Source: an uncultured Tissierellaceae bacterium (GTDB lineage: Bacteria; Bacillota; Clostridia; Tissierellales; Tissierellaceae). Taken from it: 64,000 bases of DNA. Below the pieces are notes generated by a model. It was not told the origin of the DNA, searched no databases, and saw nothing but the letters and a program-made list of their open reading frames with translations. The position numbers and the translations under genes are program-made. How positions within the stretch are numbered: the stretch's first letter is position 1; the number at the start of each line of letters is the position of its first letter. Where the stretch lies: contig CAZGQG010000004.1 in NCBI GenBank assembly GCA_964527205.1, positions 7,023-71,022 on the forward strand, in the 5' to 3' direction. Below are positions 3,620-32,831 of this stretch, in pieces.

Positions 3620-3633
3620 AAAATCCTCCCCAA

Positions 3634-3670: not shown

Positions 3671-3671
3671 C

Positions 3672-4448: not shown

Positions 4449-4482
4449 CTAATCATCTCCACATTAAGCTTTCTATAAGCTC

Positions 4483-7468: not shown

Positions 7469-7497
7469 TTGACTCTGGGTATATTCATTGATAGTAT
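7469..7497 (+). promoter_or_regulatory. Sigma-A type promoter for the M-box/mgtA transcript
   Basis: TTGACT (7469-7474), a 17-nt spacer, then TAGTAT (7492-7497), about 25 nt upstream of the M-box. Confidence 0.5.
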
Positions 7498-7521
7498 GGT
7501 TATTTGATAAATGAATATGAT

Positions 7522-7675
7522 TTGTTAGGTAGAGGCTCCTATACAAACACAGGCTACTGCCCAGAAACGTCCAGAGACGCCAACGGGTATAACAGGAATT
7601 AACCGAAATAAGGTGTTCTTAAGGTAGCTAACAGAAATGTTTACGTTGTATAGTGCTAAAACTCCACGAAAAGAT
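7522..7675 (+). promoter_or_regulatory. M-box (ykoK leader) Mg2+ riboswitch
   Basis: GTTAGGTAGAGGCTCCTATACAAACACAGGCTACTGCCCAGAAACGTCCAGAGACGCCAACGGGTATAACAG...GTGCTAAAACTCCACGAAAAG matches the conserved M-box core. It lies upstream of a Mg2+ P-type ATPase. Confidence 0.85.
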
Positions 7676-7716
7676 CATAATGTGTAAGATTTTTTATACT
7701 TTATGTGGATATTTAG

Positions 7717-7750
7717 AAGCTCTCACTGCCTGTGGGAGCTTTTTATATTT
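7717..7750 (+). terminator. M-box expression-platform terminator
   Basis: 10-bp stem aagctctcac/gtgggagctt (one G-U pair), followed by TTTTTATATTTTT. Confidence 0.7.
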
Positions 7751-7784
7751 TTATTAAATTTATTATAGAAAGGATGGATAAGAG

Positions 7785-10532: not shown

Positions 10533-11978
10533 ATGTATTATTTTAAGAAAACAATAAAAATTATATTTATTCTATATCTTCTATACGCCATCTTTTTTTC
10601 AGTTTTCATCTTTGCCTATCACAAGCCTATTGATAAGAAGGATATAGAGGACAAGCTTTCTAAGCCTCTGGGAGACAGGGAGAGAAATGACCGGGTGGCC
10701 CTTATTGAGTCTCCTGAGAATGCCATTAACATTAGGCTAGATTTAATTGAAAACGCCCATTCCACCATAGACATATCCTACTATAAGTTAGTGGATGGAG
10801 AGGTGGCAGATGTCTTTTTAGGATCTGTCTTGGAGGCAGCGGACCGAGGAGTCCAGGTAAGGATACTATTAGATGGGGTTATTCAACTTAGTAATATGGG
10901 GGGCAAGGTAAATAAGATTTTTTTAGGCTTTGAAAACCACCCTAATATAGACCTAAAGCTCTATGAACCCTTTAATCCACTACTTCCAATATCTTGGAAT
11001 AACAGACTTCACGATAAGCTTATTTTAGTAGATGGTGAATTTGCCCTTACAGGAGGTAGGAACATTGAGGACCGCTTTTATTTAGAAGAAGTCTTTCAAG
11101 ATGGCTTTGTCAAGGATAGGGAGTTGCTTGTCTATAATGACAAGAAAAAAGATGGAGCCTCCACTGTAATAGAAGAAATAAATTCCTATTACAATGAACT
11201 TTGGAATCATTCCTATTCCAAGCCTAAGTATAACTATATGACTAAAAGAAGGATCTCCAAGGGAGAGACCTATCTTGCCCGTTTAAGATTAGAACATGAA
11301 ACTCTAAAAGAAGATTTTTTAGACAGGTATTTTCCTAGTATCAGGCCCATAGACTGGAGAGAAAAGACAATTCCTGCAGATAGGGTACGCTTTATATCAA
11401 ATCCTATAGGAAGAAGCAATCAAGACCCAAGGATATTAAAGGCAATCCTTCAGTTAAGCTCTCAGGTTGAAAATGATATGCTTGTACAAAGTCCCTATAT
11501 AGTACCTTCTAGGAGCATAAATGCAGCCTATAGGGAGTATGATATAGATCCAGAAAAGATAAGACTACTTACCAATTCCTGTGCCTCTAGTCCTAATCTA
11601 CCAGCCTTTGCTGGTTATAAGAGATATAGGGAGGACATGGTAGATCAGGGTCTTACTATCTATGAATATCAGGGGCCAGGATCCATACATGCCAAAACAG
11701 CTATTTTCGACAAGGATATAAGCCTAATTGGTACCTTTAATCTTGATCCAAGAAGTGCCTATCTAAGTACAGAATCAATGATGATAGTTGAAAGCAAGGA
11801 CTTTACCCATATCTTAAAGGAAACCATGCAGAAAAACCTCTTCTATAGCTTAGAAGTAGATGAGGATTATGACTATATTGAATTGGAAGGCCTGCCAGCC
11901 TATGATCTGGCCAGGGCTAAGAGAATATTTATTACTGTCCTATCAAAGATAACACCCCTATTTGAATATTTACTATAA
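10533..11978 (+). CDS. Phospholipase D / cardiolipin-synthase-like protein with an N-terminal membrane anchor
   Basis: 481 aa with two HKD motifs (HDKLILVDGEFALTGGRN and HAKTAIFDKDISLIGTFNLDPRS). Confidence 0.8.
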   Translation: MYYFKKTIKIIFILYLLYAIFFSVFIFAYHKPIDKKDIEDKLSKPLGDRERNDRVALIESPENAINIRLDLIENAHSTIDISYYKLVDGEVADVFLGSVLEAADRGVQVRILLDGVIQLSNMGGKVNKIFLGFENHPNIDLKLYEPFNPLLPISWNNRLHDKLILVDGEFALTGGRNIEDRFYLEEVFQDGFVKDRELLVYNDKKKDGASTVIEEINSYYNELWNHSYSKPKYNYMTKRRISKGETYLARLRLEHETLKEDFLDRYFPSIRPIDWREKTIPADRVRFISNPIGRSNQDPRILKAILQLSSQVENDMLVQSPYIVPSRSINAAYREYDIDPEKIRLLTNSCASSPNLPAFAGYKRYREDMVDQGLTIYEYQGPGSIHAKTAIFDKDISLIGTFNLDPRSAYLSTESMMIVESKDFTHILKETMQKNLFYSLEVDEDYDYIELEGLPAYDLARAKRIFITVLSKITPLFEYLL

Positions 11979-14825: not shown

Positions 14826-16052
14826 TTAGTCTCTTCCCTTATTAGGGTTTTCTCTATAGCCTTCTATAAGTTCTCCATTTTCCATGATAATAGGATCTGC
14901 AGTTGGTTGATTCCATGATATGTCATATCTATTCATAAGATAATCATTTAAATCCCTCTTGCTTGTAAATTTTATAGCCTGGTAGGGCTCTAGGAAGGAT
15001 AATTTTTCAATAAATAAAAACTCTCCATCTTCACTTGGGATTAAAAGACCCATATGTCCAATAAATAGGTAGCCTTCTTCATCATGAAAGTAAACAGAAA
15101 CTATAGATCTATCCTGGGAATTATGGAATTTAATTTCCTTGTTTTCCAGATCCTTCTTTATCTTCTCTACATGCACATCCACATCCTTTGTAAGCTCTGT
15201 AGGGATTCTGGAATAAAAAGTTCTAAATTCTTCCATTTCTTCTTCAGTGAAAATATCCTTAGGATTTTCCCTTAGGGCCATTTCATCAAAGATTAGCCAG
15301 TCTGACCTACTTGTATCTATCTTTCCAATCTCCATAGAATCCTTCATAAGACCATAGGTTACTATCCTACAATTATTTCCTAAAAACAAAGGATGTTTTC
15401 CATCCCATAGGTCGTACATGGATACAATATCATATTCCGGCTTAAGGCCCTCCACAGTATGGAAACCTTCTACTAGGCTTACAGCTTCTATGGCTTCATT
15501 ATAGTAATTAAGCTCTTCAAAAAATAAATCTAAACTTTTCTCTGGAATTCCAGCTGACTCCATAAATTCTCTTACTTGGGTCTGGCTATCCTGATCTAAT
15601 AAATTTGAATAAGTAAGGCTCCCTTTATAGTCCTCTTCTTTATTAATAGAAACTAGCCCTTTTTCCTTGTCCCAAAGAACTTCCCCTCCACTTAGCCTTT
15701 CTATAAGCTGCCTTCCTACTAGGGTCCTTCCCTTAAGGATTCTTGCTGGTCTTTCTAGATCAATTTTTTCCCCATTAAAGTTGGCAAAATCCTCTCCAAT
15801 TCCCAGCTCAAGTTCTCTATCTCCTTTTTTTGCAAGTACCTTTCTAGTCTCCCCATTCCAGGAAAGTTCATAGTCTAAAGCTTCTAAAATAGCTCTTATG
15901 GGTAATAAAATCTCCCCATCTTCTAGGATTGGTCCTAGATCAGTTTGGATTTCCTTATTATTTACTTGTAAAATCATAGGCCCTTCATCTGCCAGGGCAA
16001 GGCTTGTTAGGCTTAATACTAATATTAAAGCTACAGCAATTAATCTTTTCAT
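14826..16052 (-). CDS. Secreted stalk-domain protein with a DUF4300-like C-terminal domain
   Basis: 408 aa with a signal peptide (LILVLSLTSLALA) and a copper-amine-oxidase N-terminal-type repeat (LLPIRAILEALDYELSWNGETRKV). The C-terminal family is a low-confidence recollection. Confidence 0.45.
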   Translation of the reverse strand: MKRLIAVALILVLSLTSLALADEGPMILQVNNKEIQTDLGPILEDGEILLPIRAILEALDYELSWNGETRKVLAKKGDRELELGIGEDFANFNGEKIDLERPARILKGRTLVGRQLIERLSGGEVLWDKEKGLVSINKEEDYKGSLTYSNLLDQDSQTQVREFMESAGIPEKSLDLFFEELNYYNEAIEAVSLVEGFHTVEGLKPEYDIVSMYDLWDGKHPLFLGNNCRIVTYGLMKDSMEIGKIDTSRSDWLIFDEMALRENPKDIFTEEEMEEFRTFYSRIPTELTKDVDVHVEKIKKDLENKEIKFHNSQDRSIVSVYFHDEEGYLFIGHMGLLIPSEDGEFLFIEKLSFLEPYQAIKFTSKRDLNDYLMNRYDISWNQPTADPIIMENGELIEGYRENPNKGRD

Positions 16053-16186: not shown

Positions 16187-16807
16187 TTATTTAGAGTCAT
16201 TTTCATTTCCAAGTTTTAAAAGTCTAGCAATTTCTAGAGTCCTTCTAGCTTGGTGTTTTACAGCTTCTTCAACATCTTCTACCATACCATCTGCTCCTGC
16301 TGTTACAGATGTACCGTAAGGGTTTCCACCTGCTGCAAATATACTATTGTCTGTATAACCTGGAGCTACTATTATTGCTCCCCAGTGCATCATAGTTGTA
16401 TAGATAGCCTGTATTGTCTGCTCTTGTCCTCCGTGTTGGTTTTGAGCTGAACTCATAGCTGATACTACCTTGTTTACTAATTTACCCTCTGACCATATTC
16501 CACCCTGTAGGTCCATAAATTGCTTGATCTGTGATGCAACATTTCCGAAACGTGTAGGAGCTGAGAATATTATAGCGTCTGCCCATACTAGGTCATCTGA
16601 TGTAGCTACTTTAATATCTTTTTCCTTTTCTTTTTGAGCCTTCCAAGCTGGATTTGCATCTACTACTTCCTGTGGAGCAAGTTCCCCTGCCTTAACAAGT
16701 CTTACTTCAGCACCTGCTTCTTCTGCTGCTTCCTTTGCCCAATTTGCTAATTGAAAGTTAGTTCCTGTCATACTGTAATATACAATTGCTAGTTTTGTGT
16801 TCTTCAT
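16187..16807 (-). CDS. wrbA: NAD(P)H:quinone oxidoreductase, flavodoxin-like (WrbA type IV)
   Basis: 206 aa with the flavodoxin-like start KLAIVYYSMTGTN and a WrbA-like insert. AAAGGAGAG RBS. Confidence 0.8.
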   Translation of the reverse strand: MKNTKLAIVYYSMTGTNFQLANWAKEAAEEAGAEVRLVKAGELAPQEVVDANPAWKAQKEKEKDIKVATSDDLVWADAIIFSAPTRFGNVASQIKQFMDLQGGIWSEGKLVNKVVSAMSSAQNQHGGQEQTIQAIYTTMMHWGAIIVAPGYTDNSIFAAGGNPYGTSVTAGADGMVEDVEEAVKHQARRTLEIARLLKLGNENDSK

Positions 16808-17050
16808 TTTACATATCTCTCCTTTAATTTTAAATAATTTTTATTATTGTCCTTCTCATATTATGATATTTTATATTTACTATTTTTCTCATTCTAACTA
16901 TATATACCCCGTCCCAGTATCTCCAAACATTTATCTATTTTATTTTTTCTTCTTACAATTAAATTTATTATGGATAGGAGATTTTTCTACTTGTTAAATT
17001 CCTTGATTTTAGGGTATATCTTTACTAGAAAGAGATTAGGAGAGGATATA

Positions 17051-17608
17051 ATGCTTAAATTTGGAATAATTGTTGGAAGTTTGAGAAAAGAGTCTTATAA
17101 TATGAAGGTAGCTGAGTACCTTGTCCGCCGCTACAAGGATAAGGCTGATTTTGAAATAGTGGATATAAAGGACTTTCCCCTATTTAATCAGGACTTGGAA
17201 GATGATGTACCTCAGCCAGTCCTAGATGCTAGAAAGAAAATAGATGGAAAAGACGGTGTTATAATTGTTTCACCAGAACACAATCATTCTATTCCTGGAG
17301 TTATGCAAAATGCCCTGGATTGGTTTTCCCGTGATGATTATGTAATGATGAAAAAACCATATCTACTTATGGGAGCATCAGATGGGTCTATTGGTACTGC
17401 AAGAATGCAGGCTCAGATCAAGCAGGTCCTTAGTTCAGGAGCCTTCCAGATGTATAGTCCACCTTACAATCAACTCTTGTTTGCAAGGATTCAGGACAAT
17501 ATGGATGAAGATGGAAATATAACCAATGAAGGCAGCATAAAGAGATTGGACAAGAAAATAGATGATTTTATAGACTTTACAAAAATGATAAAGGAATATA
17601 AAAAATAA
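17051..17608 (+). CDS. NADPH-dependent FMN reductase family protein
   Basis: MLKFGIIVGSLRKESYN...SPEHNHSIPG motif. Start set at ATG 17051, which has AGGAGAGG upstream; the track ORF starts 27 codons earlier with no RBS. Confidence 0.8.
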   Translation: MLKFGIIVGSLRKESYNMKVAEYLVRRYKDKADFEIVDIKDFPLFNQDLEDDVPQPVLDARKKIDGKDGVIIVSPEHNHSIPGVMQNALDWFSRDDYVMMKKPYLLMGASDGSIGTARMQAQIKQVLSSGAFQMYSPPYNQLLFARIQDNMDEDGNITNEGSIKRLDKKIDDFIDFTKMIKEYKK

Positions 17609-17623
17609 AAATTAAAAAATAAA

Positions 17624-17656
17624 AACAAGCAAATTAAATTTTGCTTGTTTTTTTGT
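17624..17656 (+). terminator. Terminator of the FMN reductase gene, overlapping the 3' end of the convergent MATE gene
   Basis: Stem aacaagcaaa/tttgcttgtt followed by T7. Confidence 0.6.
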
Positions 17657-18965
17657 TTGTTTTGTTGAGATAGATTAATCTGGCTCCGTACATAAAAAAC
17701 ATAAAGCACCAGGAAACTATTTCAGAATACACAATAGCTAGATTTCCAAAGGCTGGTCTAAATCCGTAAGAAAGGACAATCCTAACCACTAGGGATAGGA
17801 GCCCATTAATACTTGAATATAGGACTTCTCCCTTTCCCTCTATATAGCCACGCATGGCCATGGACAGGGCAAAGACAAAGTAGAACCAACCTAAATTATA
17901 GAAAAACTCTCCACCAATCTGGGCAGCTTCTTGACCTACTCCAAAGATTTCTATCATAGGTTTCCCAAAAAATACCACAATAGGTGTAAGTATTATAGAA
18001 ACAAATAGGGCAAACTTAAGTCCTATTATCAAGCTTCTCTTGGCCTCTTCTTCCTTGCCCAGGCCAATATTTTGAGAAACTATTATTGAAATCCCTGTTC
18101 CCAGGTTAATAACTGGAAGGAGCAGCATTGTATCTATTCTATAGGCTGTGGTAATGGCTGCAACTGTAGCCGTTCCAAAGCCATTCATAAAGTTCTGTAG
18201 GATTAGGTTTCCAAAGGATGTAATAACAGATTGTACAGTAATAGGTACTGCCAGGCTAGATCCTTTTCTTAGAATATCCCTGTCAAAAACTCCTCCCTTT
18301 AAACTAAAGAAAATCCTATGTTTTTTCTTGGCATAATAGACCATATAAAGAGTCATGATTATTTGTGCAAAAAGAGTTGCTAGGGCAGCACCCTCTGCTC
18401 CCCATCTAAAGCCTACTACCAGTACAATATCTAGGATTACATTGGTAATGGCAGAGACAAGAACTGCATAAAAGGACATCTTGCTGTCTCCAATCCCCCT
18501 TAGGACAGCAGCATAAACATTATATACTGTCATAAAGGGAATTCCCCCTAGAATTATCTGTACATAGATCTTGGCTATAGGGAATATCTCCTCTGGTGTT
18601 TGCAGGGCCAGGAGTATGGTATCTGTGTAATATATGGTTATTAAGCTTATAATAGTCATAATAATTCCTAGGACCAGGGTAAAACTTGAAAGAATCTTGT
18701 TTTGTATGTAGCGGTCCTCATTTCTAATATATCTAGCTGATAGGATGGATATACCTGAGGTAAAGCCCGTTATAGCCATTATAAAAAGGCTGGTAATAAC
18801 ACTGGTAGCCCCTATGGCTGCCAGGGCCAATTCTCCTTCCACATTACCAACTATAAAGGCGTCAGCCCAGTTATAAAGCTGCTGGAGCAAGCCGCTTAAT
18901 ATAAGGGGCATGCTAAATGAAATTAATACTCTTGCAAGTTTAGAATCCAATGACTTTTTATCCAT
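17634..18965 (-). CDS. MATE family efflux transporter
   Basis: 443 aa with 12 predicted TM segments and a MatE-type N-terminus (SMPLILSGLLQQLYNWADAFIVG). Confidence 0.85.
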   Translation of the reverse strand: MDKKSLDSKLARVLISFSMPLILSGLLQQLYNWADAFIVGNVEGELALAAIGATSVITSLFIMAITGFTSGISILSARYIRNEDRYIQNKILSSFTLVLGIIMTIISLITIYYTDTILLALQTPEEIFPIAKIYVQIILGGIPFMTVYNVYAAVLRGIGDSKMSFYAVLVSAITNVILDIVLVVGFRWGAEGAALATLFAQIIMTLYMVYYAKKKHRIFFSLKGGVFDRDILRKGSSLAVPITVQSVITSFGNLILQNFMNGFGTATVAAITTAYRIDTMLLLPVINLGTGISIIVSQNIGLGKEEEAKRSLIIGLKFALFVSIILTPIVVFFGKPMIEIFGVGQEAAQIGGEFFYNLGWFYFVFALSMAMRGYIEGKGEVLYSSINGLLSLVVRIVLSYGFRPAFGNLAIVYSEIVSWCFMFFMYGARLIYLNKTNKKTSKI

Positions 18966-19061: not shown

Positions 19062-19110
19062 ATAAAAATCCCCCTTAAGAATTAATTCTTAAGGGGGGAT
19101 TTATTTTTTT
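19062..19110 (-). terminator. Strong terminator closing the 26.6-19.1 kb operon
   Basis: 17-bp stem aatcccccttaagaatt/aattcttaaggggggatt with T-tracts on both strands. Confidence 0.8.
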
Positions 19111-19116: not shown

Positions 19117-19836
19117 TTAAGTATTTGCCTTAACAGTATCAAAATGAAGTTCTCTCATTCCTTCAACCTCATCACATATGGATTTAAGATCACAGCTATT
19201 GCAGTCTAGGTCCATTTCACTTAGGGCATGGTTTAGTGTAAAGGTAATATCATCAACCCTACCAGCATTAGTGATTAGATCTTTAAAGATAGGAAGGTCT
19301 TCACTAATAAAGATAAGCTTGACCCCTTTCACATAGGGATTTTCCTTGTAATTTTTTATAAAGTTATTCCCTACATTTTCAAAGGATATGCCCTCTTTAA
19401 TTGCAGACTTTGAAATCCTAACCTGCTCCCTCCTATCCATGGTAGATGCCCTCATCATATAGCCCTTTATATTTGTATTGTACTTTACAAATTCCAAGTC
19501 CTTAATGGTCTTATAGGCTATATCATCATCTTCTAGATTAGCTATGTGAAGAAGAGCTATCCTAGCAAAGACTGTATCTTCTCTTATTTGATTTAGGTCT
19601 TCACCATATAATAGGATCTCATCTCTTGGAACAAGATCCTGTGAAGTGGTGACAGCTTGGTAACTAACTGCCGCCTTATAGCTTCCTCCCAGTTCAAAGG
19701 CTGAATCACTCTTTAATATAAGTTCGTTTTTCTTACCAGTCTCCCAGATAGAATCCATAGAGACTTCTAAGCTTCTAGGAGTGTAAGCTTCTAGTAAATC
19801 CATTGTATCCCTTATAATGCCTTCATATAGTTCCAT
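19117..19836 (-). CDS. Acetyl-CoA synthase (AcsB/CdhC) middle-domain-like protein with a C-terminal CxxCx5C motif
   Basis: 239 aa. From my recollection of Moorella AcsB, segments align: ILLYGEDLNQI vs IEVIGPDIDQI, and RISKSAIKEGISFENVGNNF vs RVSKDAVAKGFRFKNYGEIL. It ends in LDCNSCDLKSICDE and has no A-cluster domain. Confidence 0.45.
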   Translation of the reverse strand: MELYEGIIRDTMDLLEAYTPRSLEVSMDSIWETGKKNELILKSDSAFELGGSYKAAVSYQAVTTSQDLVPRDEILLYGEDLNQIREDTVFARIALLHIANLEDDDIAYKTIKDLEFVKYNTNIKGYMMRASTMDRREQVRISKSAIKEGISFENVGNNFIKNYKENPYVKGVKLIFISEDLPIFKDLITNAGRVDDITFTLNHALSEMDLDCNSCDLKSICDEVEGMRELHFDTVKANT

Positions 19837-19991
19837 TACAACTTAGGTTCCTTTTCTCTAGCGTCAAATTTCTTTCCTAAGAATGAATATATTACTGAAA
19901 CTAGTTTCATATCAAGATTGAAAAAGTATACTGTAAAAAGCAAGACAAATAAAACTACTAATACAATTAATATTATCCCTAATGCTTTCAT
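19836..19991 (-). CDS. Unannotated 51-aa single-pass membrane peptide
   Basis: Below the ORF-track cutoff. ATG 19989-19991 has GGGAG 8 nt upstream, inside the activator gene's 3' end. Translation: MKALGIILIVLVVLFVLLFTVYFFNLDMKLVSVIYSFLGKKFDAREKEPKL. Its TAA overlaps the next ATG (TAATG at 19834-19838). Confidence 0.55.
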   Translation of the reverse strand: MKALGIILIVLVVLFVLLFTVYFFNLDMKLVSVIYSFLGKKFDAREKEPKL

Positions 19992-19995
19992 ATTA

Positions 19996-20793
19996 TCACT
20001 CCCTTGCTAAAGCTTTTTGACGTGCATATTCTGCTGCACCTAAGGCACCCATTAGTTGAGGATCTGTGTCTAGTTCAATAACCTTAAGCTTCAAAACATG
20101 CTCTAGAGATTTTTTTAGTCCCCTGTTTTTTGCACAACCACCAGTAAGGGTTATGCTATCAGTTGCCCCTGCTTTCTTTGCCATTACAAAGCAACGCTTA
20201 GCTACTGCCTGTTGGATTCCTGCAGCAATTTCATCACGGGGTTTGCCCTCTCCTACCAGGGTTATTACCTCACTCTCTGCAAATACTGTGCATTGAGCTG
20301 TTATAGGAATAACATTTTTTGCTGATAGGGATAGTTCTGAGAATTCTGTTAGGGACAGTTCAAAGGCACTGGCCATACTCTCAAAGAATCGTCCTGTTCC
20401 CGCAGCACATTTATCGTTCATGGCAAAGGTTTTCACCGTACCATCTGTATCTATAGAAATCCCCTTAACGTCCTGACCACCAATATCTATAACTGCCTTA
20501 ACATCAGGATTTGTAATATGAACTCCCATAGCATGGCAGCTGATTTCTGAGATGTTTTCATTGGCTTGAGGAACCTTATTACGTCCATATCCTGTACCTA
20601 TTAGATAGTTTAAATCATGAAAGTCCTTAAGACCCACTTCTTCCAATACTGCTTCTAGGCTTAACCTAGCACTTTCCTCTGAGTTAATCTTACTCCTAAG
20701 TGTATTGTGAGCTACAATCTTTCCCTCTTCATCTAAGATCACAGATTTTGTATATGTGGAGCCTACATCACATCCACCAAAATATTTTTTCAA
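19996..20793 (-). CDS. ATP-dependent [4Fe-4S] activator (BcrAD/BadFG/HgdC ASKHA family)
   Basis: GCDVGSTYTK, DIGGQD, MNDKCAAGTG and AQCTVFAESE motifs. Likely TTG start at 20791-20793, 7 nt after AAGGAGGG, which spans the upstream TAA; the track ORF starts at 20835. Confidence 0.85.
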   Translation of the reverse strand: MKKYFGGCDVGSTYTKSVILDEEGKIVAHNTLRSKINSEESARLSLEAVLEEVGLKDFHDLNYLIGTGYGRNKVPQANENISEISCHAMGVHITNPDVKAVIDIGGQDVKGISIDTDGTVKTFAMNDKCAAGTGRFFESMASAFELSLTEFSELSLSAKNVIPITAQCTVFAESEVITLVGEGKPRDEIAAGIQQAVAKRCFVMAKKAGATDSITLTGGCAKNRGLKKSLEHVLKLKVIELDTDPQLMGALGAAEYARQKALARE

Positions 20794-20806
20794 TTTAAAG
20801 CCCTCC

Positions 20807-22330
20807 TTACCAAGTTTTTTCATCATCAAAGTCAACTAGTGTGGCATCAACTGGTTCTTCATTAAAGACAGTTTCCATATATCTATTAACTGATGCTCTC
20901 ATTTCCTTTCTTGAAACAGTTCTAGGGTCCATTAGGTCATGGTCTACCCATATTAAATGAATTCCTCTTTCCCTGGCCTGCTCTTCAAAAAGACCTGTAA
21001 GTCCTGACATGGTCTTGCATGAAATATGTCCAAACATTATAACCATATCCGCATTAAATTCCTCACATACCCTCCATAATTCATCAAGAACATTTACATA
21101 GCCACCATTTGTATGTCTTCTCATTACCATTCTTTCATAGGTATGGGCCATATCCTTTAGGGATTCTTCCTTGTCTTCTGTGTTAAATAGCTTGGTGGAA
21201 ACTAAACTCTCCATATCCACTAGAACATTTATACCCCAGCAATTTTCTGCCCAGGTAGAAAAATTACTATAATAATGGGCTGGTGGAGACCAGACTATGG
21301 CGCGGTGTCTCATTTCCTTAGAGCATTTTTCTTTCTCCTTGTAGCCTTCCATCATAATCTTATTAACCTTTTTATCCAGTTCTAAAAATCTCTCATCCAT
21401 ACTTCCTGTTATAAGGGTGGAATACATCCTGTAAAGAGCAAGATTGGCTCCTGTTATTTGTGGATAATCAGTTTTGTTGATTTCCCACTTTTCAAGTTCA
21501 TATTCTGTTTCCTTATTGTACTGCTTCATACATCTAAAGTAATTGTCCCAATCAAAGGTCTCTCCTGTATTGTCTTCAATAAACTTTATACAATCCTTAA
21601 GGTCTTGAACTGCATATTCTTCTACTTCCTGTCCTAGATACCTTACAGGTAATCCTAGGGGAAAGGTTGGTAGATTAAAGTATCTGTTCTGAAAGGAGCT
21701 TGCCATTACAGATCCATCACAGGGCATACTGCTTGTAATATAGCATTTTCCAAGGATTGGATATTCATCAACCACTGCTACTCCTGCTTCACAGGCTGGC
21801 AGTGGACAAACATCTGCTGGCAAACCAAAGTTTTCAATAGCATCTAAATAAGGTATCATGCTGTGCTGGTCTATAATTGAAGATTGAAAAACAGGTACTA
21901 CCTGAGCTCCAATTCCTATTAAATTTGGAAAGCCTGCCATTAGGTGCTGAGGCATCATTTCATCAAATAAGACAATCCTATCTGAAAGATCATTGGCTCC
22001 AAATCTTTTGTCTGCCTTAAATAAATTTGAAATTATTCCTGTTGTATTTTTTATCATCATATTAAAATGCAAATGATTTATTCTTAAAGTTCTACCTCTA
22101 AGTCCCATAGAATGCCTATCAATAAAGGCTGGTGTAGAAAGATAGGAAGACATCCACCTGTAGTTAAATGCTCCCTTAGTAATTCTAATAGGGGCACTGG
22201 AAACAAATTTAGTCAGATCCTTCCAGGTTACAAGCCAACGATAAAAATCATACATAGTATCATTTAAACCTCTCCACTCCCTGCGCTTAAGATACATTTT
22301 CCCGTGGTATAGTTCACCAATCTTAGTCAT
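20807..22330 (-). CDS. 2-hydroxyacyl-CoA dehydratase / benzoyl-CoA reductase family subunit (HGD-D), large
   Basis: 507 aa with conserved Cys-containing segments (LPADVCPLPACEAG, SSMPCDG, MFGHISCKTMSG) typical of HgdA/BcrC-like proteins. Its start overlaps the upstream gene by 8 nt. Confidence 0.7.
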   Translation of the reverse strand: MTKIGELYHGKMYLKRREWRGLNDTMYDFYRWLVTWKDLTKFVSSAPIRITKGAFNYRWMSSYLSTPAFIDRHSMGLRGRTLRINHLHFNMMIKNTTGIISNLFKADKRFGANDLSDRIVLFDEMMPQHLMAGFPNLIGIGAQVVPVFQSSIIDQHSMIPYLDAIENFGLPADVCPLPACEAGVAVVDEYPILGKCYITSSMPCDGSVMASSFQNRYFNLPTFPLGLPVRYLGQEVEEYAVQDLKDCIKFIEDNTGETFDWDNYFRCMKQYNKETEYELEKWEINKTDYPQITGANLALYRMYSTLITGSMDERFLELDKKVNKIMMEGYKEKEKCSKEMRHRAIVWSPPAHYYSNFSTWAENCWGINVLVDMESLVSTKLFNTEDKEESLKDMAHTYERMVMRRHTNGGYVNVLDELWRVCEEFNADMVIMFGHISCKTMSGLTGLFEEQARERGIHLIWVDHDLMDPRTVSRKEMRASVNRYMETVFNEEPVDATLVDFDDEKTW

Positions 22331-23528
22331 GACTTAAGGCCTCCTTTTCTTTTTGAATCATTTTGATTTCAAGACTTTCAACAAATGCCTGTATTCTTGT
22401 ACGGAGCTGTCCTGAACCTCTTGCCATATAAGGGCGGTCTAGAGATAGGACTGGATATCCAAACTCTGTATTCATTACATGACTTGCCAGGGTTCTTTCA
22501 TAGCCCCAATAATCACAGAACTTTATCTGTTCATAGATTATTCCATCTGCCTTGAACTTCTTTGCATAATGATCAACCATGTCGTACCTTTGGTCAATTT
22601 TCTCCTTGCTCATATATCTAGGACACTGGCTTTGTTCCAGGTACTGCCTACAAATTGCTGTAAGTACATCTTCACCCTCTGGTAGGTTGATCTCCTGTCT
22701 ACCTGGGAAGGATCCAAAGCAAAACCTATCAGCAACTATAAGAGCTCCAGATTCTTCTATTAGCTGGGTTAATTCTGGGTCATCTATCTCACTTCCCACT
22801 AAAACCACTCTTGCTCGAAAATTCTTTTTCGTATCTCTTTCCCTATTCCTAACTTCTTCTAGAGTTTCCCTAAGCTTATCTACAATAAGATACTTGGGAC
22901 AACAATAGGTCACTAGATTTAGAATATGGAACTCATAACCGCTTATAGGAGGATTGTCCTCTGTTCTAAATTCTCCTATCTCAGTAATTAGCCTGCAAAC
23001 CTCATTATGCATTTCCAAAGACTTTCTTATTGCCTCATCCGATGTATCCACCCCTAGTTTTTCCTTTAGGGGATCTAAGACCCTAAGTCTAATTTGTCCC
23101 ACATAATGGGCTATGGCATGCTCATCTACCTTGTAGGGTATGTCAACATGGGATATAAAGAAATTTTCCTTATCAATTAGCTCTAATAGTTCAATATTCT
23201 CCATTGCCCTGTTCATCTGAGCACAGGCATCAACACCTGCAATAGCATCTATAAAGTTATATCCCCCTTCAATGGACCTTTCTAATAGGGCCCTACAGTA
23301 CTCACAGGTATAGTTGGACATATAGTAAGTAGCTATATCTAGGGAGCCTGTTCTTGGAGCTCTCATTCGTAAAGAAAAACAATTGTCAAGATTTAAAAGT
23401 ACTTCCGGCATATGAAAACATGTATAAGCAATGGCCAGCTTTCCTTCTCCCTGAGCCTGCCTTATTAAATCATTATTTGCATCCTGTAATAAGCCTTCAA
23501 AGTAATACAAATGTTTTAAGTCTTTCAC
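22323..23528 (-). CDS. 2-hydroxyacyl-CoA dehydratase / benzoyl-CoA reductase family subunit (HGD-D), small
   Basis: 401 aa with HgdB/BcrB-like patterns (IAYTCFHMPEVL, GVDACAQMNR, DRFCFGS, IKFCDYWGYE). GTG start with AAAGGAGAA RBS. Confidence 0.7.
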   Translation of the reverse strand: MKDLKHLYYFEGLLQDANNDLIRQAQGEGKLAIAYTCFHMPEVLLNLDNCFSLRMRAPRTGSLDIATYYMSNYTCEYCRALLERSIEGGYNFIDAIAGVDACAQMNRAMENIELLELIDKENFFISHVDIPYKVDEHAIAHYVGQIRLRVLDPLKEKLGVDTSDEAIRKSLEMHNEVCRLITEIGEFRTEDNPPISGYEFHILNLVTYCCPKYLIVDKLRETLEEVRNRERDTKKNFRARVVLVGSEIDDPELTQLIEESGALIVADRFCFGSFPGRQEINLPEGEDVLTAICRQYLEQSQCPRYMSKEKIDQRYDMVDHYAKKFKADGIIYEQIKFCDYWGYERTLASHVMNTEFGYPVLSLDRPYMARGSGQLRTRIQAFVESLEIKMIQKEKEALSHD

Positions 23529-23542
23529 TGGATTCTCCTTTC

Positions 23543-24304
23543 TTAAATCTCTAATTTTTCAAGAGCTTCTACAACTCCTAGAACTACATTGGAATCATCT
23601 GGAAGATTAAAGATGCTTTTTCCCTGAATGTCAAAGGATGCAAGGTTTTTATCTTCCTCTATATAGGTAAGGATAGGTATACCCTCAGTCTTAATATAGT
23701 CCTTTAAGGATATATCTCCCACACGATTAACTATTACACCAACCTCTTCATACATTACTAGCTCATCTGCTACTTTTTTAATGGTCTTAACTACCTGGGT
23801 ACCCTTCTTGCTAGGATCTGTAATTAGGAGCAAGTGAGTAACCTTGTCCATAACCCTACGATTAACCTGTTCAATTCCTGCCTCACCATCAATTACCACA
23901 TAATCAAATTCCTGGGAAAGCATGCTTATTACATCCTTTAAATAAGCATTGATCTTGCAATAGCAACCTGTTGATTCAGGACGTCCTATGGCTAAAAATG
24001 CAAAACCATCCTTTTCAACTATGGTGTCAAAGATCTTAAATCTGGCATCTCCAAGGATTTCAATAGCATCCTTAGGATTTCCATCCTCTACATTTTGTAC
24101 AATAGATTTTCTTATATCATCTAGGGTGTTTTCTGGGTCAATATTTAGAGCAGTAGAAAGACCTATTGCTGGGTCTGCATCAATGGCTAAGATGCGTGAC
24201 TCTGGATACTTGGCTACTAGAGTCTTTACTATTGAAGCTGATACTGATGTTTTACCAACTCCACCCTTTCCTGCTACAGCTATAATTTTTGCTTGTTTTT
24301 CCAT
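23543..24304 (-). CDS. CooC/MinD-type P-loop ATPase (metallocentre maturation-like)
   Basis: 253 aa with the deviant Walker A AGKGGVGKTS, AIDADP, and the GRPESTGCYCKINAYL CxC motif characteristic of CooC-type Ni-insertion ATPases. Confidence 0.7.
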   Translation of the reverse strand: MEKQAKIIAVAGKGGVGKTSVSASIVKTLVAKYPESRILAIDADPAIGLSTALNIDPENTLDDIRKSIVQNVEDGNPKDAIEILGDARFKIFDTIVEKDGFAFLAIGRPESTGCYCKINAYLKDVISMLSQEFDYVVIDGEAGIEQVNRRVMDKVTHLLLITDPSKKGTQVVKTIKKVADELVMYEEVGVIVNRVGDISLKDYIKTEGIPILTYIEEDKNLASFDIQGKSIFNLPDDSNVVLGVVEALEKLEI

Positions 24305-24328
24305 AGTTCTCCTCCTATATTTTAATTT

Positions 24329-26611
24329 TTAAATCTTCCTTGCAAGATTATAAGCTGCACGGCTTCCTTCTAGTACCCTACCAGCACGGTGACTATCCCC
24401 AATATTATAAACTTCCTTGGCTACAAAGTCTTTTTGAGCTTGGAAATACAGGCTTTCATCAGCCCTTCCTCCCATTGCCAGTACAACAAGGTCTGCATCT
24501 ATACTCTCATCCCTGGTCTCATCTCCAATTTTCTTTTCCATTGGATTTGGAATGTTAACAGGTAGAAGTGGTTCCCAAGTATTGTATGGGTTTGGTACTC
24601 CCTTTGAAATATTTCTGCTAATATGAACCTTGCTTTCATCAAAGGATACAACCTTAGCACAGTTAATAAGTTCTACATTTTCCTTGTTTAGGTAATAAAT
24701 CAAATGTCCACGGTTGGCTGTACATACTCCCTCCATGAAGTTTGGCAACATCTCTACAACCTTTACATCCTTGTCATATTCATATTTCAACCAATAAGCT
24801 GTTTCACAACCTACAACTCCACCACCAATTACCACTATCTTCTTAGCATCTCCCATAAGTTCAGGATTAGATAGGAGGTCTGTAGCTTGTACAGTCTTTA
24901 TCTTCTCTATACCTGGCATCCTAGGATTAATATCCTGGGTTCCATAGGCAAATACTACTGAATCATAGTCTTGGTCCTTTAACCAATCAGAACTTACCTC
25001 AGTCTCATATCTCATTTTAAAGTTAGGGTTTTCCTCAGCTAATTCAACCTGATTTTCTAGGTATTTTAGATAGTTTTCAAATTCATATTTGATCTTAGGT
25101 ACACTACCTGGTCTAACCCTTCCCCCTATTTTTCCACTTTTTTCAATTAAATCTACCTTATGGCCACGCTTTGCAGCTGTTGTAGCAAAGAGAACTCCTG
25201 TAGGTCCAGCTCCTACTACAGCAATGTTTTTGACCCTTTCTGGTTCTCCAGGGATTTCAGGCATTACATCTTCAAATCCAGTACGTGGATTTACTGCACA
25301 CTGTGGATGTCCACCTTCAACAAATTCATTGATACAACCTTCCTGACAACCAATACAAGGTATTATCTCTTCCACATCTCCTGCATAGGCCTTGTTAGCC
25401 CACTCTGGATCTGCAAGCAATGGACGAGCAAGCATTACCATATCGCAACTTCCATCCCTAAGTGCCTTCTCAGCAAGGTCTGGATAGCCTAGCTTACCAA
25501 CAGCAACTATAGGAACTTCTAATCCCATATTGGATTTTATATCTCTAGCCTTAAAGTATTCCTTAGCTGTACGTGATATATCTAAGAAGCATCCTGCAGG
25601 CATTCCAGCTGGAGGATGAGGTAACCACCAGTTATCATAGCAACCAAGGTCTACGTCAAACATATCTACTCCTGCCTTAACTAGATTTTCCATATAATCT
25701 AGGGTATCTGCTATGGTTCTTCCATCCTTAAATTTCTTTAGGGAATTGACCTTATCCATATCCTCTCCGTAAGTCTCATTAAGTGCCAATGAAAGGTCTA
25801 TACGGTACATAATTGGATATCTGTCTCCTACTCTTTCTCTCATTTCCTTTACAATATCAATACCAAATCTCTGCCAATCAGAATATTTTCCTATCTTTCT
25901 ACGATTAAAAGCTGTATTAGTCATTTGATCTAGAAGATAGCCCTCATGACCATGGAGATATACTCCATCAAGTCCACATTCCTTAGCATCTGCTGCTGCT
26001 TGACCACAATTTTTTACAATTTTATTTAATTTAGAATCCGATAATCTTAGGCATGGAACCTGTGGTATATAGAAATTGGGATTAAAAGATGCTGATCTTG
26101 GAAATTTCATTTCATTTACCAAACAAGTTGGAGGGCCTACACGTCCTAGACCTGGTGTAATTTGAATAAAGATTTTACTTCCATAAGAATGTACTCCCTG
26201 GGCAAGATCACGCCAACCTGCAAATACAGTACGGGATCTATCTATACGTGGAAACATTGTAAGATCTCCAGATTCAGTTAGGGACTTATCTATACCATGA
26301 CTTACTGGAATTAAACCAGTAGTAAGTAATCCTGTCCCACCCTTGGCTCTGGCAAAAAAGTATTGAAGCATCTTTGCATTGGGTCTGCCTGTTTCATCAC
26401 ACATATTCACATTTCCCATAGGTCCCATTACTATACGATTCTTAAGAGTAATATTATTTACCCTAATAGGAGAAAACAAGGTTTCATAGGGATACATTTC
26501 CTTGGTCATTCTGGCTGTGCTGCCTGCCTCATTTTCATTCTCTTCCTGGACCCAATTACCATAACTGTTAATTAAATCCTGAACTAATTGATCTTTTTTC
26601 AAGACATTCAC
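24329..26611 (-). CDS. Enoate-reductase / 2,4-dienoyl-CoA-reductase-type flavoprotein (OYE FMN domain + 4Fe-4S + FAD/NAD(P) domain)
   Basis: 760 aa with an OYE core (LKNRIVMGPMG, HGHEGYLLDQ), the cluster motif CIGCQEGCINEF...C, and dinucleotide folds VVGAGPTG and VIGGGVVG. The start codon is uncertain (GTG 26611 or TTG 26602). Confidence 0.8.
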   Translation of the reverse strand: MNVLKKDQLVQDLINSYGNWVQEENENEAGSTARMTKEMYPYETLFSPIRVNNITLKNRIVMGPMGNVNMCDETGRPNAKMLQYFFARAKGGTGLLTTGLIPVSHGIDKSLTESGDLTMFPRIDRSRTVFAGWRDLAQGVHSYGSKIFIQITPGLGRVGPPTCLVNEMKFPRSASFNPNFYIPQVPCLRLSDSKLNKIVKNCGQAAADAKECGLDGVYLHGHEGYLLDQMTNTAFNRRKIGKYSDWQRFGIDIVKEMRERVGDRYPIMYRIDLSLALNETYGEDMDKVNSLKKFKDGRTIADTLDYMENLVKAGVDMFDVDLGCYDNWWLPHPPAGMPAGCFLDISRTAKEYFKARDIKSNMGLEVPIVAVGKLGYPDLAEKALRDGSCDMVMLARPLLADPEWANKAYAGDVEEIIPCIGCQEGCINEFVEGGHPQCAVNPRTGFEDVMPEIPGEPERVKNIAVVGAGPTGVLFATTAAKRGHKVDLIEKSGKIGGRVRPGSVPKIKYEFENYLKYLENQVELAEENPNFKMRYETEVSSDWLKDQDYDSVVFAYGTQDINPRMPGIEKIKTVQATDLLSNPELMGDAKKIVVIGGGVVGCETAYWLKYEYDKDVKVVEMLPNFMEGVCTANRGHLIYYLNKENVELINCAKVVSFDESKVHISRNISKGVPNPYNTWEPLLPVNIPNPMEKKIGDETRDESIDADLVVLAMGGRADESLYFQAQKDFVAKEVYNIGDSHRAGRVLEGSRAAYNLARKI

Positions 26612-26653
26612 CCCTTATTTTTATGTTAATATTTTAACATTTCAAAGTAAAAA

Positions 26654-27271
26654 TTATTTTTTATAAGCTTCTAAGTAATTTGTAATGATCTTCCTGCAAT
26701 AGTTTCTAAGTTCATAGGAGCCTTTGTTTTGACACCAATTATAGATTACTCCTCGGGAAATCATTAGTAGTTCTGATGTTATATCCTCTGCATCTTCCGA
26801 CTTTGTAATGAGTCCCTTGTCCTGGGCTTGGATAACGAGTTGAAGTAGGCCCTGAGGCAAACCTCTGTCAGACTTTAGAAAAAAGTCAACTCCCTCTGTG
26901 ATTTGAGCCCTGTAAAGCTCAATCATTAAATCAATTCCTACATCAATTGCATAAAGCATTTGATAGTCAATATATTCTAAAATCCTTCCAAATTCATCCT
27001 CACTCTTTAACTTTCCGATAATGTTTTCCTTAAAAAAATTGTCACATTCTCCGTAGCCTTCTACTATTAAATCCTGTTTGCTTTTAAAGTGATGATAAAA
27101 AGAACCTATAGAAACCCCTGCTTCAGTGCAAATAGTTTCAACGCTTAGTTCATCATAGGTATAATCCTTGCTAAGTCTCTTTGCTGTTTTCATAATGTGA
27201 TCTTTTGTTGCCTTTGCTTGTAACTGTCTACTTGTTAAGCTTTCTCTAGCCTCCACCATGACCTCCCCCAT
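26654..27271 (-). CDS. TetR/AcrR family transcriptional regulator
   Basis: 205 aa with the HTH region YDELSVETICTEAGVSIGSFYHHFKSKQDL. Confidence 0.85.
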   Translation of the reverse strand: MGEVMVEARESLTSRQLQAKATKDHIMKTAKRLSKDYTYDELSVETICTEAGVSIGSFYHHFKSKQDLIVEGYGECDNFFKENIIGKLKSEDEFGRILEYIDYQMLYAIDVGIDLMIELYRAQITEGVDFFLKSDRGLPQGLLQLVIQAQDKGLITKSEDAEDITSELLMISRGVIYNWCQNKGSYELRNYCRKIITNYLEAYKK

Positions 27272-27284
27272 AGATTTATTTTCA

Positions 27285-27324
27285 CAGAATCAATTCATAG
27301 AACTCATTCGCAGAATGCATTCTG
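27285..27324 (-). promoter_or_regulatory. Candidate TetR operators (two related palindromes)
   Basis: Perfect 14-bp palindrome CAGAATGCATTCTG (27311-27324) and a related CAGAATCAATTCAT (27285-27298), 14-53 nt upstream of the TetR ATG. Confidence 0.5.
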
Positions 27325-31935: not shown

Positions 31936-32069
31936 AAAGCCCCCTCACTTCCACTTTATCACTTTAGTGTGATTGAGTTTTCTCTATACTGGGTAAGTAA
32001 TGAACACTACAAAAAATTGTAGGAGATCCATTGTTAGAGAAGGCAAGTTATGCAAAAGGAGGAATAGAC

Positions 32070-32831
32070 ATGAAAAAGAGAATCAGTTTTATTTTAGTAG
32101 CAGTACTAATACTAAGCTTTTCTGTAGTGAGTTTAGGAGAAATTGTAGTTCAAGAAGTAAAAGCTCATTTAGCTGATGATATGAAGTTCCAAGTAGATGG
32201 AAAGATGTGGCAGCCTAAGGATGTAGATGGAACATTATTGTCACCTTTAATTTATAAGAACAGATCCTATGTACCAGTTAGGGCTTTGTTAGAAGAAAAA
32301 GATGTTGATGTAGGGTTTGATGAAAAGACAAGAACTATCATCTTAAACTATCCTGAATATGAACCACCAGTAGGAGAGTACGATCCACCAAAGGATCAAA
32401 GATATTGGGATCCAGATGCAGGTAAATATCCACTACCTGGCGACATAATTGCAGGACCTATAGTATGGAAAATAGGCGGACCTTATGAAGAATTACCTGA
32501 CTATACTTTAATTCTTGAAGAATTTGCAAAGTTAAACCAAGTTATGGATAGCCAAACAATAACTATGCATTTAGATAGAGATGCTAAGGTAATGGTAAAT
32601 GGTAAGGAATGGGCTATAGAAGAATTAGTTAAGGAAAAGAAAGTATTTACAGTTAACGGAGATTCAAAAGGTGAAATTAGTTTCAAAGGCGATAAAAAGT
32701 CTGATACAATTAAATTAGTACAGTTTGATGGTAAAGAAATTAAAGAAGACCAAGCACCAGCAAGAAAAATCGAATGGGAAGTAAGTTTTTCAGGGCCTCC
32801 ATTCAAAATAAAAATAACTATTAGATTCTAG
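32070..32831 (+). CDS. Secreted stalk-domain (copper amine oxidase N-terminal-like) protein
   Basis: Start at ATG 32070 after AAAGGAGG. Signal peptide KKRISFILVAVLILSF, and the stalk-like segment NRSYVPVRALLEEKDVDVGFDEKTRTIIL. Confidence 0.5.
   Translation: MKKRISFILVAVLILSFSVVSLGEIVVQEVKAHLADDMKFQVDGKMWQPKDVDGTLLSPLIYKNRSYVPVRALLEEKDVDVGFDEKTRTIILNYPEYEPPVGEYDPPKDQRYWDPDAGKYPLPGDIIAGPIVWKIGGPYEELPDYTLILEEFAKLNQVMDSQTITMHLDRDAKVMVNGKEWAIEELVKEKKVFTVNGDSKGEISFKGDKKSDTIKLVQFDGKEIKEDQAPARKIEWEVSFSGPPFKIKITIRF

Follow-up and report, generated by a model that had tools for sequence, protein, structure and literature searches.

A conserved clostridial operon joins a benzoyl-CoA-reductase-like two-subunit core to CooC-like and acetyl-CoA-synthase-like proteins

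We analysed 64,000 nucleotides of contig CAZGQG010000004.1 (GenBank assembly GCA_964527205.1) from an uncultured Tissierellaceae bacterium, hereafter the window. Eight co-directional open reading frames (ORFs) on the minus strand, taken from the ORF list (19117-27271; Table 1), consist of a gene for a TetR-family regulator and seven genes encoding a flavoenzyme, a CooC-like ATPase, two HGD-D subunits, their activase, a microprotein and a 239-aa protein related to acetyl-CoA synthase (ACS). On balance we favour the reading that this operon specifies a new variant of the radical enzymes known as benzoyl-CoA reductases (BCR) and 2-hydroxyacyl-CoA dehydratases (HAD), controlled by TetR and provided with a dedicated, probably nickel-related pair of CooC-like and ACS-like proteins. 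Confidence is high for one part of it, namely that a conserved system of the BzdNO type occurs together with a dedicated CooC/ACS-like pair. An involvement of nickel is plausible and short of probable, and binding of CoA by the ACS-like protein is a tentative proposal drawn from its fold relatives.

The small HGD-D subunit found its best PDB match in BzdN (8s02_B, E = 6e-27), followed by the double-cubane cluster protein (DCCP) and HadC. The same BzdN chain was the best Foldseek hit (E = 1.3e-15) of the AlphaFold model of this subunit, which had a predicted local distance difference test score (pLDDT) of 78 and was used for the fold search only. In BzdNO, the BzdN cysteines 36, 73, 100, 263, 293 and 327 hold the [8Fe-9S] double cubane and the BzdO cysteines 95, 128 and 380 the catalytic [4Fe-4S]-OH2 cluster (Fuchs et al. 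2025, PMC11971306). The six BzdN positions align with C37, C75, C102, C270, C302 and C338 of the small subunit, all of which were 100% conserved in 45 orthologs. Their spacing agrees as well with most of the seven-cysteine motif described for DCCP (PMC7317905), and four additional cysteines (C50, C178, C210 and C293) are conserved.

The large subunit matched MbdO (9g87_A, E = 2.5e-7), with C175, C204 and C438 falling on the MbdO cysteines. All three were 100% conserved, C247 was conserved to 98%, and H352, H406 and H464 were invariant; the N-terminus is about 80 residues longer. Counted from the aligned cysteines, the position of BzdO His131 (three residues on) appears to be taken by Ser207 and that of Tyr97 (two residues on) by Leu177, according to one pairwise alignment with MbdO in which Glu65 and Trp46 could not be placed. 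In another locus of the same species (L002, Logan SRR24377095) the gene of the large subunit is split into two ORFs of 183 and 321 aa (3306-3857 and 3863-4828) within an otherwise intact operon, so that the catalytic subunit may be disrupted in that strain, unless the assembly is in error. The activase is encoded by a single gene in the window and in every sampled locus, from which we infer a homodimer.

When all products were compared with NCBIfam, the generic activase domain model TIGR00241 was the sole model passed (218 bits, cutoff 125.4), and no product reached the cutoff of any equivalog. The bzdN and bzdO equivalogs were missed with 103.8 versus 453.8 bits and 18.8 versus 448.6 bits, and those of HadB and HadC with 17 and 81 bits versus cutoffs of 750 and 700. 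NF040772 (DCCP) was the top match of both subunits, with 131.5 and 41.4 bits versus a cutoff of 350. The source annotations name the subunits only as '2-hydroxyacyl-CoA dehydratase family protein'. Because the six double-cubane cysteines are retained, while the double cubane has disappeared in 2-hydroxyacyl-CoA dehydratases (PMC11971306), the core is, judged by its ligands, BCR/DCCP-like and not HAD-like. Neither does it appear to be a canonical benzoyl-CoA reductase, considering the single activase, the apparently changed His131 and Tyr97 positions and the extra conserved residues. A resemblance to DCCP-type reductases had been pointed out in the initial annotation on account of the missing CoA-handling genes; this absence was borne out, whereas the core turned out to be a BzdN/BzdO-type heterodimer instead of a homodimeric DCCP.

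The 239-aa protein had been described as the middle domain of ACS lacking the A-cluster domain, and profile and structure comparisons agreed with this view. PF03598 (CdhC) was matched with 27.9 bits, above its gathering cutoff of 24, and TIGR00316 scored 22.9 bits, below its cutoff of 355.95. A profile of the family matched only ACS in the PDB (E = 2.7e-7), with profile positions 36-193 corresponding to residues 329-483 of M. thermoacetica ACS. The AlphaFold model (pLDDT 86.7, predicted template modelling score 0.81) returned ACS or CdhC chains for all top 22 Foldseek matches in the PDB (best E = 2e-10), and the next fold followed at E = 0.23. Neither the A1 domain nor the A3/A-cluster domain is present, and the chain stops 18 residues past the third cysteine of a C-terminal motif, D-C212-xx-C215-xx-K-xx-C221-D-E-V-E-G-x3-L-H231.

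This motif was invariant in 27 close homologs. Among 111 full-length representatives with 23-47% identity, the cysteine motif was the most conserved feature of the family, with conservation values of 0.98 for C212, 0.96 for C215, 0.98 for C221 and 0.78 for H231. A PDB query with the A-cluster segment of ACS placed the ACS cysteines at 506, 509, 518 and 528. R193 of the protein in the window corresponds to E483 of ACS; counted from this anchor, the CxxCx5C motif starts 19 residues further on, compared to 23 residues for CxxCx8C in ACS. By these offsets from the profile alignment, CxxCx5C is topologically equivalent to C506, C509 and C518, with which the series of A-cluster cysteines begins. Searched by itself against the PDB with phmmer, the 65-residue C-terminal segment gave no match. 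In ACS, A2 is the main domain for binding acetyl-CoA, where a Trp stacks on the adenine and a Lys/Arg patch holds the diphosphate (bioRxiv 10.1101/2024.08.05.606187). Y126, R92, K118, R129, R140 and K143 are conserved in the family of the ACS-like protein. The family comprises 1,164 clusters at 90% and 797 clusters at 50% identity (E <= 1e-3). A search for domain fusions in the 150 best 50%-cluster representatives found none, all of them being stand-alone proteins of about 235-250 aa, and no model organism occurred among the names of the cluster members.

The ATPase gene had been assigned to the CooC type with a CxC motif, and its closest PDB entry was indeed CooC1 of C. hydrogenoformans (3kje, E = 5e-16), with MinD next (1e-8). 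Both the deviant Walker A motif and the nickel-bridging CxC motif align with CooC1, and C114, C116 and the P-loop were invariant in 52 orthologs. A generic ParA/MinD identity was rejected on the grounds of these E values and the aligned CxC. Weak matches to NUBPL/ParA and MrpORP models were also obtained. No carbon monoxide dehydrogenase (CODH) or full-length ACS was present among the scanned ORFs of the window or the recurrent neighbours of related loci, the 239-aa fragment being the only ACS-related gene, and among the neighbour families of related loci no CODH/ACS gene recurred within 10 kb.

The distribution of the module was studied in a species scan with one genome per species, in which counts on gene order refer to those 51 loci whose upstream sequence extended over 5.6 kb or more. 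The ACS-like gene was carried by at least 580 species-representative genomes, and the locus is thus not the orphan that the initial annotation had taken it for. Most carriers are uncultured Oscillospiraceae, Lachnospiraceae and other Clostridia from the guts of human, mouse, chicken, horse and termite and from the rumen; a few Spirochaetes and the cultured Clostridium algidicarnis DSM 15099 and Brotocaccenecus cirricatena were found in addition. The suggested co-occurrence of HGD-D, activator, CooC-like and ACS-like genes was observed with the fixed order CooC, small HGD, large HGD, activase, (peptide), ACS-like in 42 of the 51 loci, spanning Clostridium, Vallitalea, Oscillospiraceae, Lachnospiraceae and Spirochaetes. 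The CooC-like gene lay on the same strand and at most about 5.6 kb upstream of the ACS-like gene in 47/51 loci. Sequence identity ranged from 67 to 85% for the small subunit (27 homologs aligned) and went down to 45% for the ACS-like protein. As proposed before, CoA-transferase and acyl-CoA dehydrogenase/electron-transfer flavoprotein (Etf) genes, and likewise 2-hydroxyacid dehydrogenase genes, were neither found near the operon in the window nor recurrent in 80 related loci. HtpG, EamA and MGMT were discarded as partners, recurring in Oscillospiraceae only as lineage synteny.

Fourteen loci contained one or two extra paralogous HGD pairs, each accompanied by its own homologous microprotein gene (E = 1e-9 to 1e-13) and none by a CooC-like, activase or ACS-like gene of its own. 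The paralogous small subunits retain the six double-cubane cysteines, and the large, substrate-binding subunits share no more than 35-43% identity with their counterpart in the core. From these sequences the pairs look like an enzyme family that acts on different substrates and has one activase and accessory set in common.

A gene for CooT (PF10133) and a small DUF8180-like gene were detected in 14 loci, either immediately upstream of the CooC-like gene in divergent orientation or behind the ACS-like gene or a neighbouring paralogous HGD pair. All module-linked CooT homologs start with Met-Cys, and Cys2 is the residue through which CooT binds nickel. In the DUF8180-like protein, a His-rich tract at the N-terminus, e.g. 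HEHSHSHAHGHEHGHAH, is combined with a conserved LxYMLxHNRxHxEEL helix, which makes the protein a candidate for an unannotated family of nickel metallochaperones. By analogy, the trio of CooC, CooT and His-rich protein resembles the set for CODH maturation; a survey of CODH genomic contexts treats CooC, CooT and CooJ purely as CODH maturases (10.1101/2025.09.14.676152). The initial annotation had left a choice between dedicated metallocluster maturation and a new subunit architecture. The recurrent CooT and His-rich genes favour a role in metal handling, and they do so without deciding between subunit and maturation factor. Neither a curated family model nor a source annotation nor searchable literature gives the gene set a function, in line with the earlier expectation that it is not assigned to a characterised pathway; the papers on isoprene reductase (PMC10134865), Calderihabitans (PMC7306483) and the CODH contexts (10.1101/2025.09.14.676152) were unrelated to it.

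The flavoenzyme most resembled E. coli 2,4-dienoyl-CoA reductase FadH (1ps9, E = 1e-61) and 2-naphthoyl-CoA reductase (NCR; 6qkg, E = 8e-49), and its translation contains the [4Fe-4S] motif CIGCQEGC...C (CxxCxxxC...C). It scored below every NCBIfam cutoff (for BaiCD, 310 versus 825 bits), and for the Lachnospiraceae-type flavoenzymes of the old yellow enzyme (OYE) type, as for the paralogous HGD pairs, there was no NCBIfam equivalog. An OYE of any kind was located within 9 kb in 23 of the 51 loci and an ortholog in 16, with varying position and orientation. OYE genes also adjoin the genes of the class I BCR-like tetrahydronaphthoyl-CoA (THNCoA) reductase, where OYE and ferredoxin have been proposed to supply electrons (PMC12016498). 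The description as a 760-aa OYE/4Fe-4S/FAD reductase was thus correct in type; the start codon is probably TTG 26602 (757 aa, as called in the related locus L001) rather than GTG 26611. The microprotein carries the tail motif YxxNLDxK...Y...D and was found with a hidden Markov model in 78 of 88 loci. Its hydropathy, the only basis used for this assignment, suggests that it is possibly a membrane anchor or tether.

All coordinates and junctions that had been listed for the seven genes and tetR were confirmed on the minus strand, and every domain call was recovered with Pfam (PF06050 twice, PF01869, PF00724, PF07992, PF01656, PF00440 and PF03598). The gaps measure 24 nt between the OYE and CooC-like genes and 14 nt between the CooC-like and small HGD genes, and the two HGD genes overlap by 8 nt (22323-22330). 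The large-subunit stop codon TAA (20809-20807) precedes GGAGGG, a spacer of 7 nt and the activase start TTG 20793; the activase ORF spans 19996-20835, and this start gives 265 aa, the same length as called in L001. The stop codon of the microprotein and the start codon of the ACS-like gene have one base in common (19836), which suggests translational coupling. The operon ends, as noted earlier, in a strong terminator, with a G+C-rich stem of 12-13 bp, including six G-C pairs, and a T-run behind it. Directly past it lie genes for a MATE efflux pump (17634-18965), an FMN reductase (16970-17608, plus strand) and a WrbA/flavodoxin-like protein (16187-16807). These surroundings (16187-18965) are reminiscent of a response to quinone or xenobiotic stress and are not conserved in other lineages.

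Palindromic operators had been predicted around the regulator gene. Upstream of tetR, a perfect 14-bp palindrome, CAGAATGCATTCTG, and an imperfect copy at about 27275-27296 were found in a 203-nt spacer in which about 0.01 such palindromes are expected by chance, whereas the short spacer between tetR and the OYE gene showed only weak AT-rich repeats. A TetR gene was present in 3 of the 51 sampled loci, and the tetR position is kept only in the closest relatives (L001 and L007-L011). In the TetR-bearing loci L009, L010 and L011, a palindrome-like box, ACATAgTT.gTTCGGtGAAc..cTATGT, is located about 60-110 nt 5' of tetR, with two copies in L009. This box is unlike CAGAATGCATTCTG of the window, which suggests a diverged operator specificity.

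Table 1. Genes and control elements of the operon in the window, and positions of recurrent additional genes in related loci
Feature	Position	Strand	Details
TetR-family regulator	26654-27271	-	205 aa; PF00440, 47.5 bits
OYE(FMN)-[4Fe-4S]-FAD/NAD(P) flavoenzyme, FadH/NCR type	24329-26611	-	760-aa ORF; PF00724 and PF07992
CooC-type P-loop ATPase	23543-24304	-	253 aa; PF01656; deviant Walker A GKGGVGKT and C114-x-C116
BzdN-like small HGD-D subunit, predicted [8Fe-9S] double-cubane carrier	22323-23528	-	401 aa; PF06050, 302.4 bits
BzdO/HadB-like large (catalytic) HGD-D subunit	20807-22330	-	507 aa; PF06050, 155.8 bits
ASKHA [4Fe-4S] ATP-dependent activase	19996-20793	-	265 aa from TTG 20793; PF01869, 190.9 bits; TIGR00241
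Microprotein	19836-19991	-	51 aa; hydrophobic N-terminal helix and conserved tail
ACS middle (A2)-domain-like protein	19117-19836	-	239 aa; PF03598 CdhC, 27.9 bits
Intrinsic terminator at operon end	19069-19098	-	hairpin and T-run; scores on the plus strand too
Perfect 14-bp palindrome CAGAATGCATTCTG	27311-27324	no strand	upstream of tetR; candidate TetR operator
CooT and DUF8180-like genes	L004: 10885-11317		also in L013, L018, L021, L023, L031, L034, L037, L038, L042, L047, L049, L057, L062
Paralogous BzdN-like/BzdO-like pairs	L020: 10799-13809, 18079-20709		also in L025, L034, L046, L055, L058, L062, L078, L086 and others

Several observations speak against a nickel-linked radical enzyme with its own accessory pair. 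The ACS-like protein lacks C528 and the nickel ligands Cys595-Gly-Cys597 of ACS, the Trp that stacks on adenine in ACS aligns to Met128, and the C-terminal cysteine motif is modelled at low confidence; its Cys3His site could equally hold Zn or a [4Fe-4S] cluster. CooT and His-rich homologs are absent from the 64-kb window and present in only 14 of about 51 loci. In the large subunit, His131 and Tyr97 are apparently not kept, and by this alignment the chemistry may differ from a Birch-type ring reduction. The double cubanes of BzdNO (PMC11971306) and DCCP (PMC7317905) form in heterologous hosts without dedicated maturases, and therefore the iron-sulfur core does not obviously depend on CooC. 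Finally, the CooC-like and ACS-like genes occur as a pair alone in 5-7 loci, in one lineage with HGD genes missing for 10 kb around, and the ACS-like gene stands by itself in three loci.

Of the alternatives, the best surviving one, which we regard as unlikely, is that the CooC-like and ACS-like proteins serve in assembly or insertion of iron-sulfur clusters without any nickel. The CxC motif would then hold a labile cluster or Fe as in Mrp/NBP35, and the ACS-like protein, serving as scaffold or adaptor in building the [8Fe-9S] or the catalytic cluster, would not belong to the mature enzyme. CooC belongs to the same SIMIBI/MinD class as iron-sulfur carriers, weak NUBPL/ParA and MrpORP matches were obtained, and the Cys3 motif corresponds to three of the four [4Fe-4S] ligands of the A-cluster of ACS. 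The pair can be encoded away from HGD genes, as the pair-only loci indicate, and several paralogous HGD pairs apparently use one CooC/ACS-like set, as would be expected of maturation factors. However, the motif is CxC as in nickel-binding CooC and not the CxxC of Mrp/NBP35, nickel-type chaperones (CooT with its Cys2 signature and the His-rich protein) recur beside the module, and the double cubanes of BzdNO and DCCP were made heterologously in the absence of such factors (PMC11971306, PMC7317905).

It seems even less probable that the two proteins form an independent unit, either for nickel storage or delivery or as a CO or metal sensor, that works for CODH/ACS or another nickel enzyme encoded elsewhere and is merely co-located with the HGD genes. 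Elsewhere CooC and CooT are known solely from the maturation of CODH/ACS, and the loci with the ACS-like gene alone and those with the pair alone fit this idea; the latter sit directly downstream of a divergent [FeFe]-hydrogenase-like gene (Fe_hyd_lg_C and ferredoxin domains), next to housekeeping genes. Yet the pair-only loci (L070, L074 at 7378-8961, L075, L080 and L083) largely represent one syntenic high-GC lineage. A search for a common alternative partner in them was uninformative for the same reason, as their neighbours ([FeFe]-hydrogenase-like, pyrroline-5-carboxylate reductase, phospholipase D, TruA and MutS) belong to one syntenic lineage. Moreover, the pair is embedded in the HGD operon in 42/51 loci across several phyla-level groups, the ACS-like gene forming its end and overlapping with that of the peptide, and CODH/ACS genes do not recur within 10 kb.

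We give as little credence to an ordinary, non-redox 2-hydroxyacyl-CoA dehydratase of amino-acid fermentation with CoA-transferase and dehydrogenases encoded elsewhere and the CooC-like and ACS-like genes as passengers: PF06050 in both subunits, an activase above the cutoff of TIGR00241 ('acyl-CoA dehydratase activase'), the family label in the sources and the amino-acid-fermenting clostridial hosts are compatible with it, but the retained six double-cubane cysteines (lost in HADs; PMC11971306), the HadB/HadC scores far below cutoff, the lack of recurrent CoA-transferase, 2-hydroxyacid dehydrogenase and acyl-CoA dehydrogenase/Etf genes in 80 loci, and the strict order with tight or overlapping junctions in 42/51 loci, unlike that of passengers, all argue to the contrary.

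Compared with characterised systems, the best sequence and fold matches are those to BzdNOPQ and MbdONPQ (8S02, 9G87), which likewise combine two subunits of HGD-D fold, six cysteines in the small and three in the large one, with an ASKHA electron injector. In contrast to BzdNOPQ, one activase gene replaces the BzdP/BzdQ heterodimer, BzdO His131 and Tyr97 are apparently not kept by alignment, and scores remain far below the equivalog cutoffs. There are no genes for a benzoate-CoA ligase, a ferredoxin or a dienoyl-CoA pathway, while the microprotein and the CooC-like and ACS-like proteins are added, and the hosts are fermentative gut Clostridia and not denitrifiers. With DCCP and DCCP-R (6ENO, 7YYL) the system shares the six-cysteine set with a seventh cysteine nearby (C50), a homodimeric activase and the lack of CoA-handling genes and of an assigned physiological substrate. 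DCCP is, however, a homodimer of one subunit, compared to a heterodimer here whose large subunit has three cysteines only, and its operon lacks the CooC, ACS-like, OYE and peptide genes. HadBC/HadI and HgdAB/HgdC are similar in the HGD-D fold, the alpha/beta heterodimer, the single homodimeric activase and the clostridial hosts; they differ in that the beta subunit of HADs carries a [4Fe-5S] cluster, the double cubane being lost, and in that HAD loci contain a CoA-transferase and dehydrogenase/Etf, none of which is found here.

The accessory genes share with ACS and its partners AcsF/CooC, CooT and CooJ the A2 fold, a CxxC...C motif at the position of Cys506/509/518, the Walker A and CxC motifs of CooC, and CooT plus a His-rich protein in 14 loci. 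Unlike in the ACS/CODH set, A1, A3, C528 and the Cys-Gly-Cys motif are missing, no genes for CODH, the corrinoid iron-sulfur protein or methyltransferase are nearby, and the place of CooJ is taken by the His-rich protein, which is DUF8180-like and has its His tract at the N-terminus. The combination of a FadH/NCR-type OYE flavoenzyme with an ATP-dependent BCR-type enzyme recalls the anaerobic reduction of naphthoyl-CoA by NCR, dihydronaphthoyl-CoA reductase (DHNCR) and THNCoA reductase (PMC12016498). The thn operon differs in encoding four BCR subunits, a ferredoxin, a CoA ligase and beta-oxidation enzymes, in lacking CooC-like and ACS-like genes, and in its hosts, which are sulfate reducers that degrade polycyclic aromatic hydrocarbons.

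For the favoured radical-enzyme variant, the gene content, homologies and conservation of ligands and neighbourhoods observed here would be compatible with the following scheme, in which the types of cluster, the formation of a complex, the part played by nickel, the binding of CoA and the reaction itself are all inferred. By homology to BzdNOPQ and HadBC/HadI, the homodimeric ASKHA activase would accept an electron from a low-potential donor and, upon hydrolysis of ATP, inject it into the [8Fe-9S] double cubane of the small subunit. From there the electron would move on to a site-differentiated [4Fe-4S] cluster with three cysteine ligands in the large subunit, which would reduce or radical-dehydrate the substrate, probably an unsaturated or aromatic compound of the carboxylate or thioester type. 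The microprotein would act as a family-specific third subunit and possibly as a membrane tether, and the flavoenzyme might either reduce an activated C=C bond in a reaction preceding or following the reductase step or feed in electrons from NAD(P)H. The CooC-like ATPase would insert a metal, for which nickel is the likeliest candidate, into the ACS-like protein or by way of it, with the help of CooT and the His-rich protein in many genomes, and the ACS-like protein might be an additional metal-bearing and possibly CoA-binding subunit or else an adaptor for assembly of the reductase. In its most far-reaching form, which we put forward only tentatively, this would amount to a new class of nickel enzyme: an ATP-driven BzdNO-type radical reductase with an ACS-derived subunit that has on its Cys3(His) motif a minimal Ni or Ni-[4Fe-4S] centre resembling the A-cluster, is loaded by a CooC-type ATPase (in many genomes together with CooT and a His-rich chaperone) and binds CoA or a CoA thioester through its A2 domain, performing a low-potential reduction in gut and rumen Clostridia.

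Further features were recorded elsewhere in the window. An ABC operon of the oligopeptide/nickel type (53875-58982) encodes a fused double ABC protein of 578 aa as its ATPase; its SBP_bac_5 (Opp/Nik-type) binding protein is split into two ORFs (57415-58107 and 58149-58982) that cover profile positions 2-191 and 210-365, likely by a frameshift, pseudogene formation or a sequencing error. The N-terminal ('stalk') domain of copper amine oxidase occurs in four proteins (1828-3036, 14826-16052, 32031-32831 and 50296-51396), one of them fused to a CAP domain, and these are probably secreted or cell-wall-associated paralogs. Two 490-aa paralogs of 5'-nucleotidase/metallophosphoesterase type (37285-38757 and 51415-52887) and two phospholipase D/cardiolipin-synthase-like genes (10533-11978 and 43261-44835) were also present. 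A fumarate-reductase-like FAD flavoprotein with an N-terminal FMN_bind domain (41276-43030) is of a kind linked to extracytoplasmic reductases of unsaturated acids in anaerobes.

BCR/HAD enzymes catalyse reductions that are among the hardest in biology. We know of three functional types (aryl-CoA reduction, 2-hydroxyacyl-CoA dehydration and the DCCPs, to which no substrate is assigned), none of them with metal-chaperone partners, and CooC, CooT and ACS domains have to our knowledge been linked so far exclusively to the metabolism of CO and acetyl-CoA. The CooC/ACS-A2 pair, the microprotein and the recurrent CooT and His-rich genes are unprecedented for the known family of the catalytic core. 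Even without nickel, the microprotein and the ACS A2 domain as a protein of its own (a family of about 800 clusters at 50% identity) represent new unannotated components, and the compact gene set together with a cultured carrier, Clostridium algidicarnis DSM 15099, offers a testable handle. Altogether, with the BCR/HAD and CooC/ACS worlds joined in one conserved operon of at least 580 species, gut ecosystems seem to harbour a metalloenzyme and a reductive reaction that have gone unrecognised.

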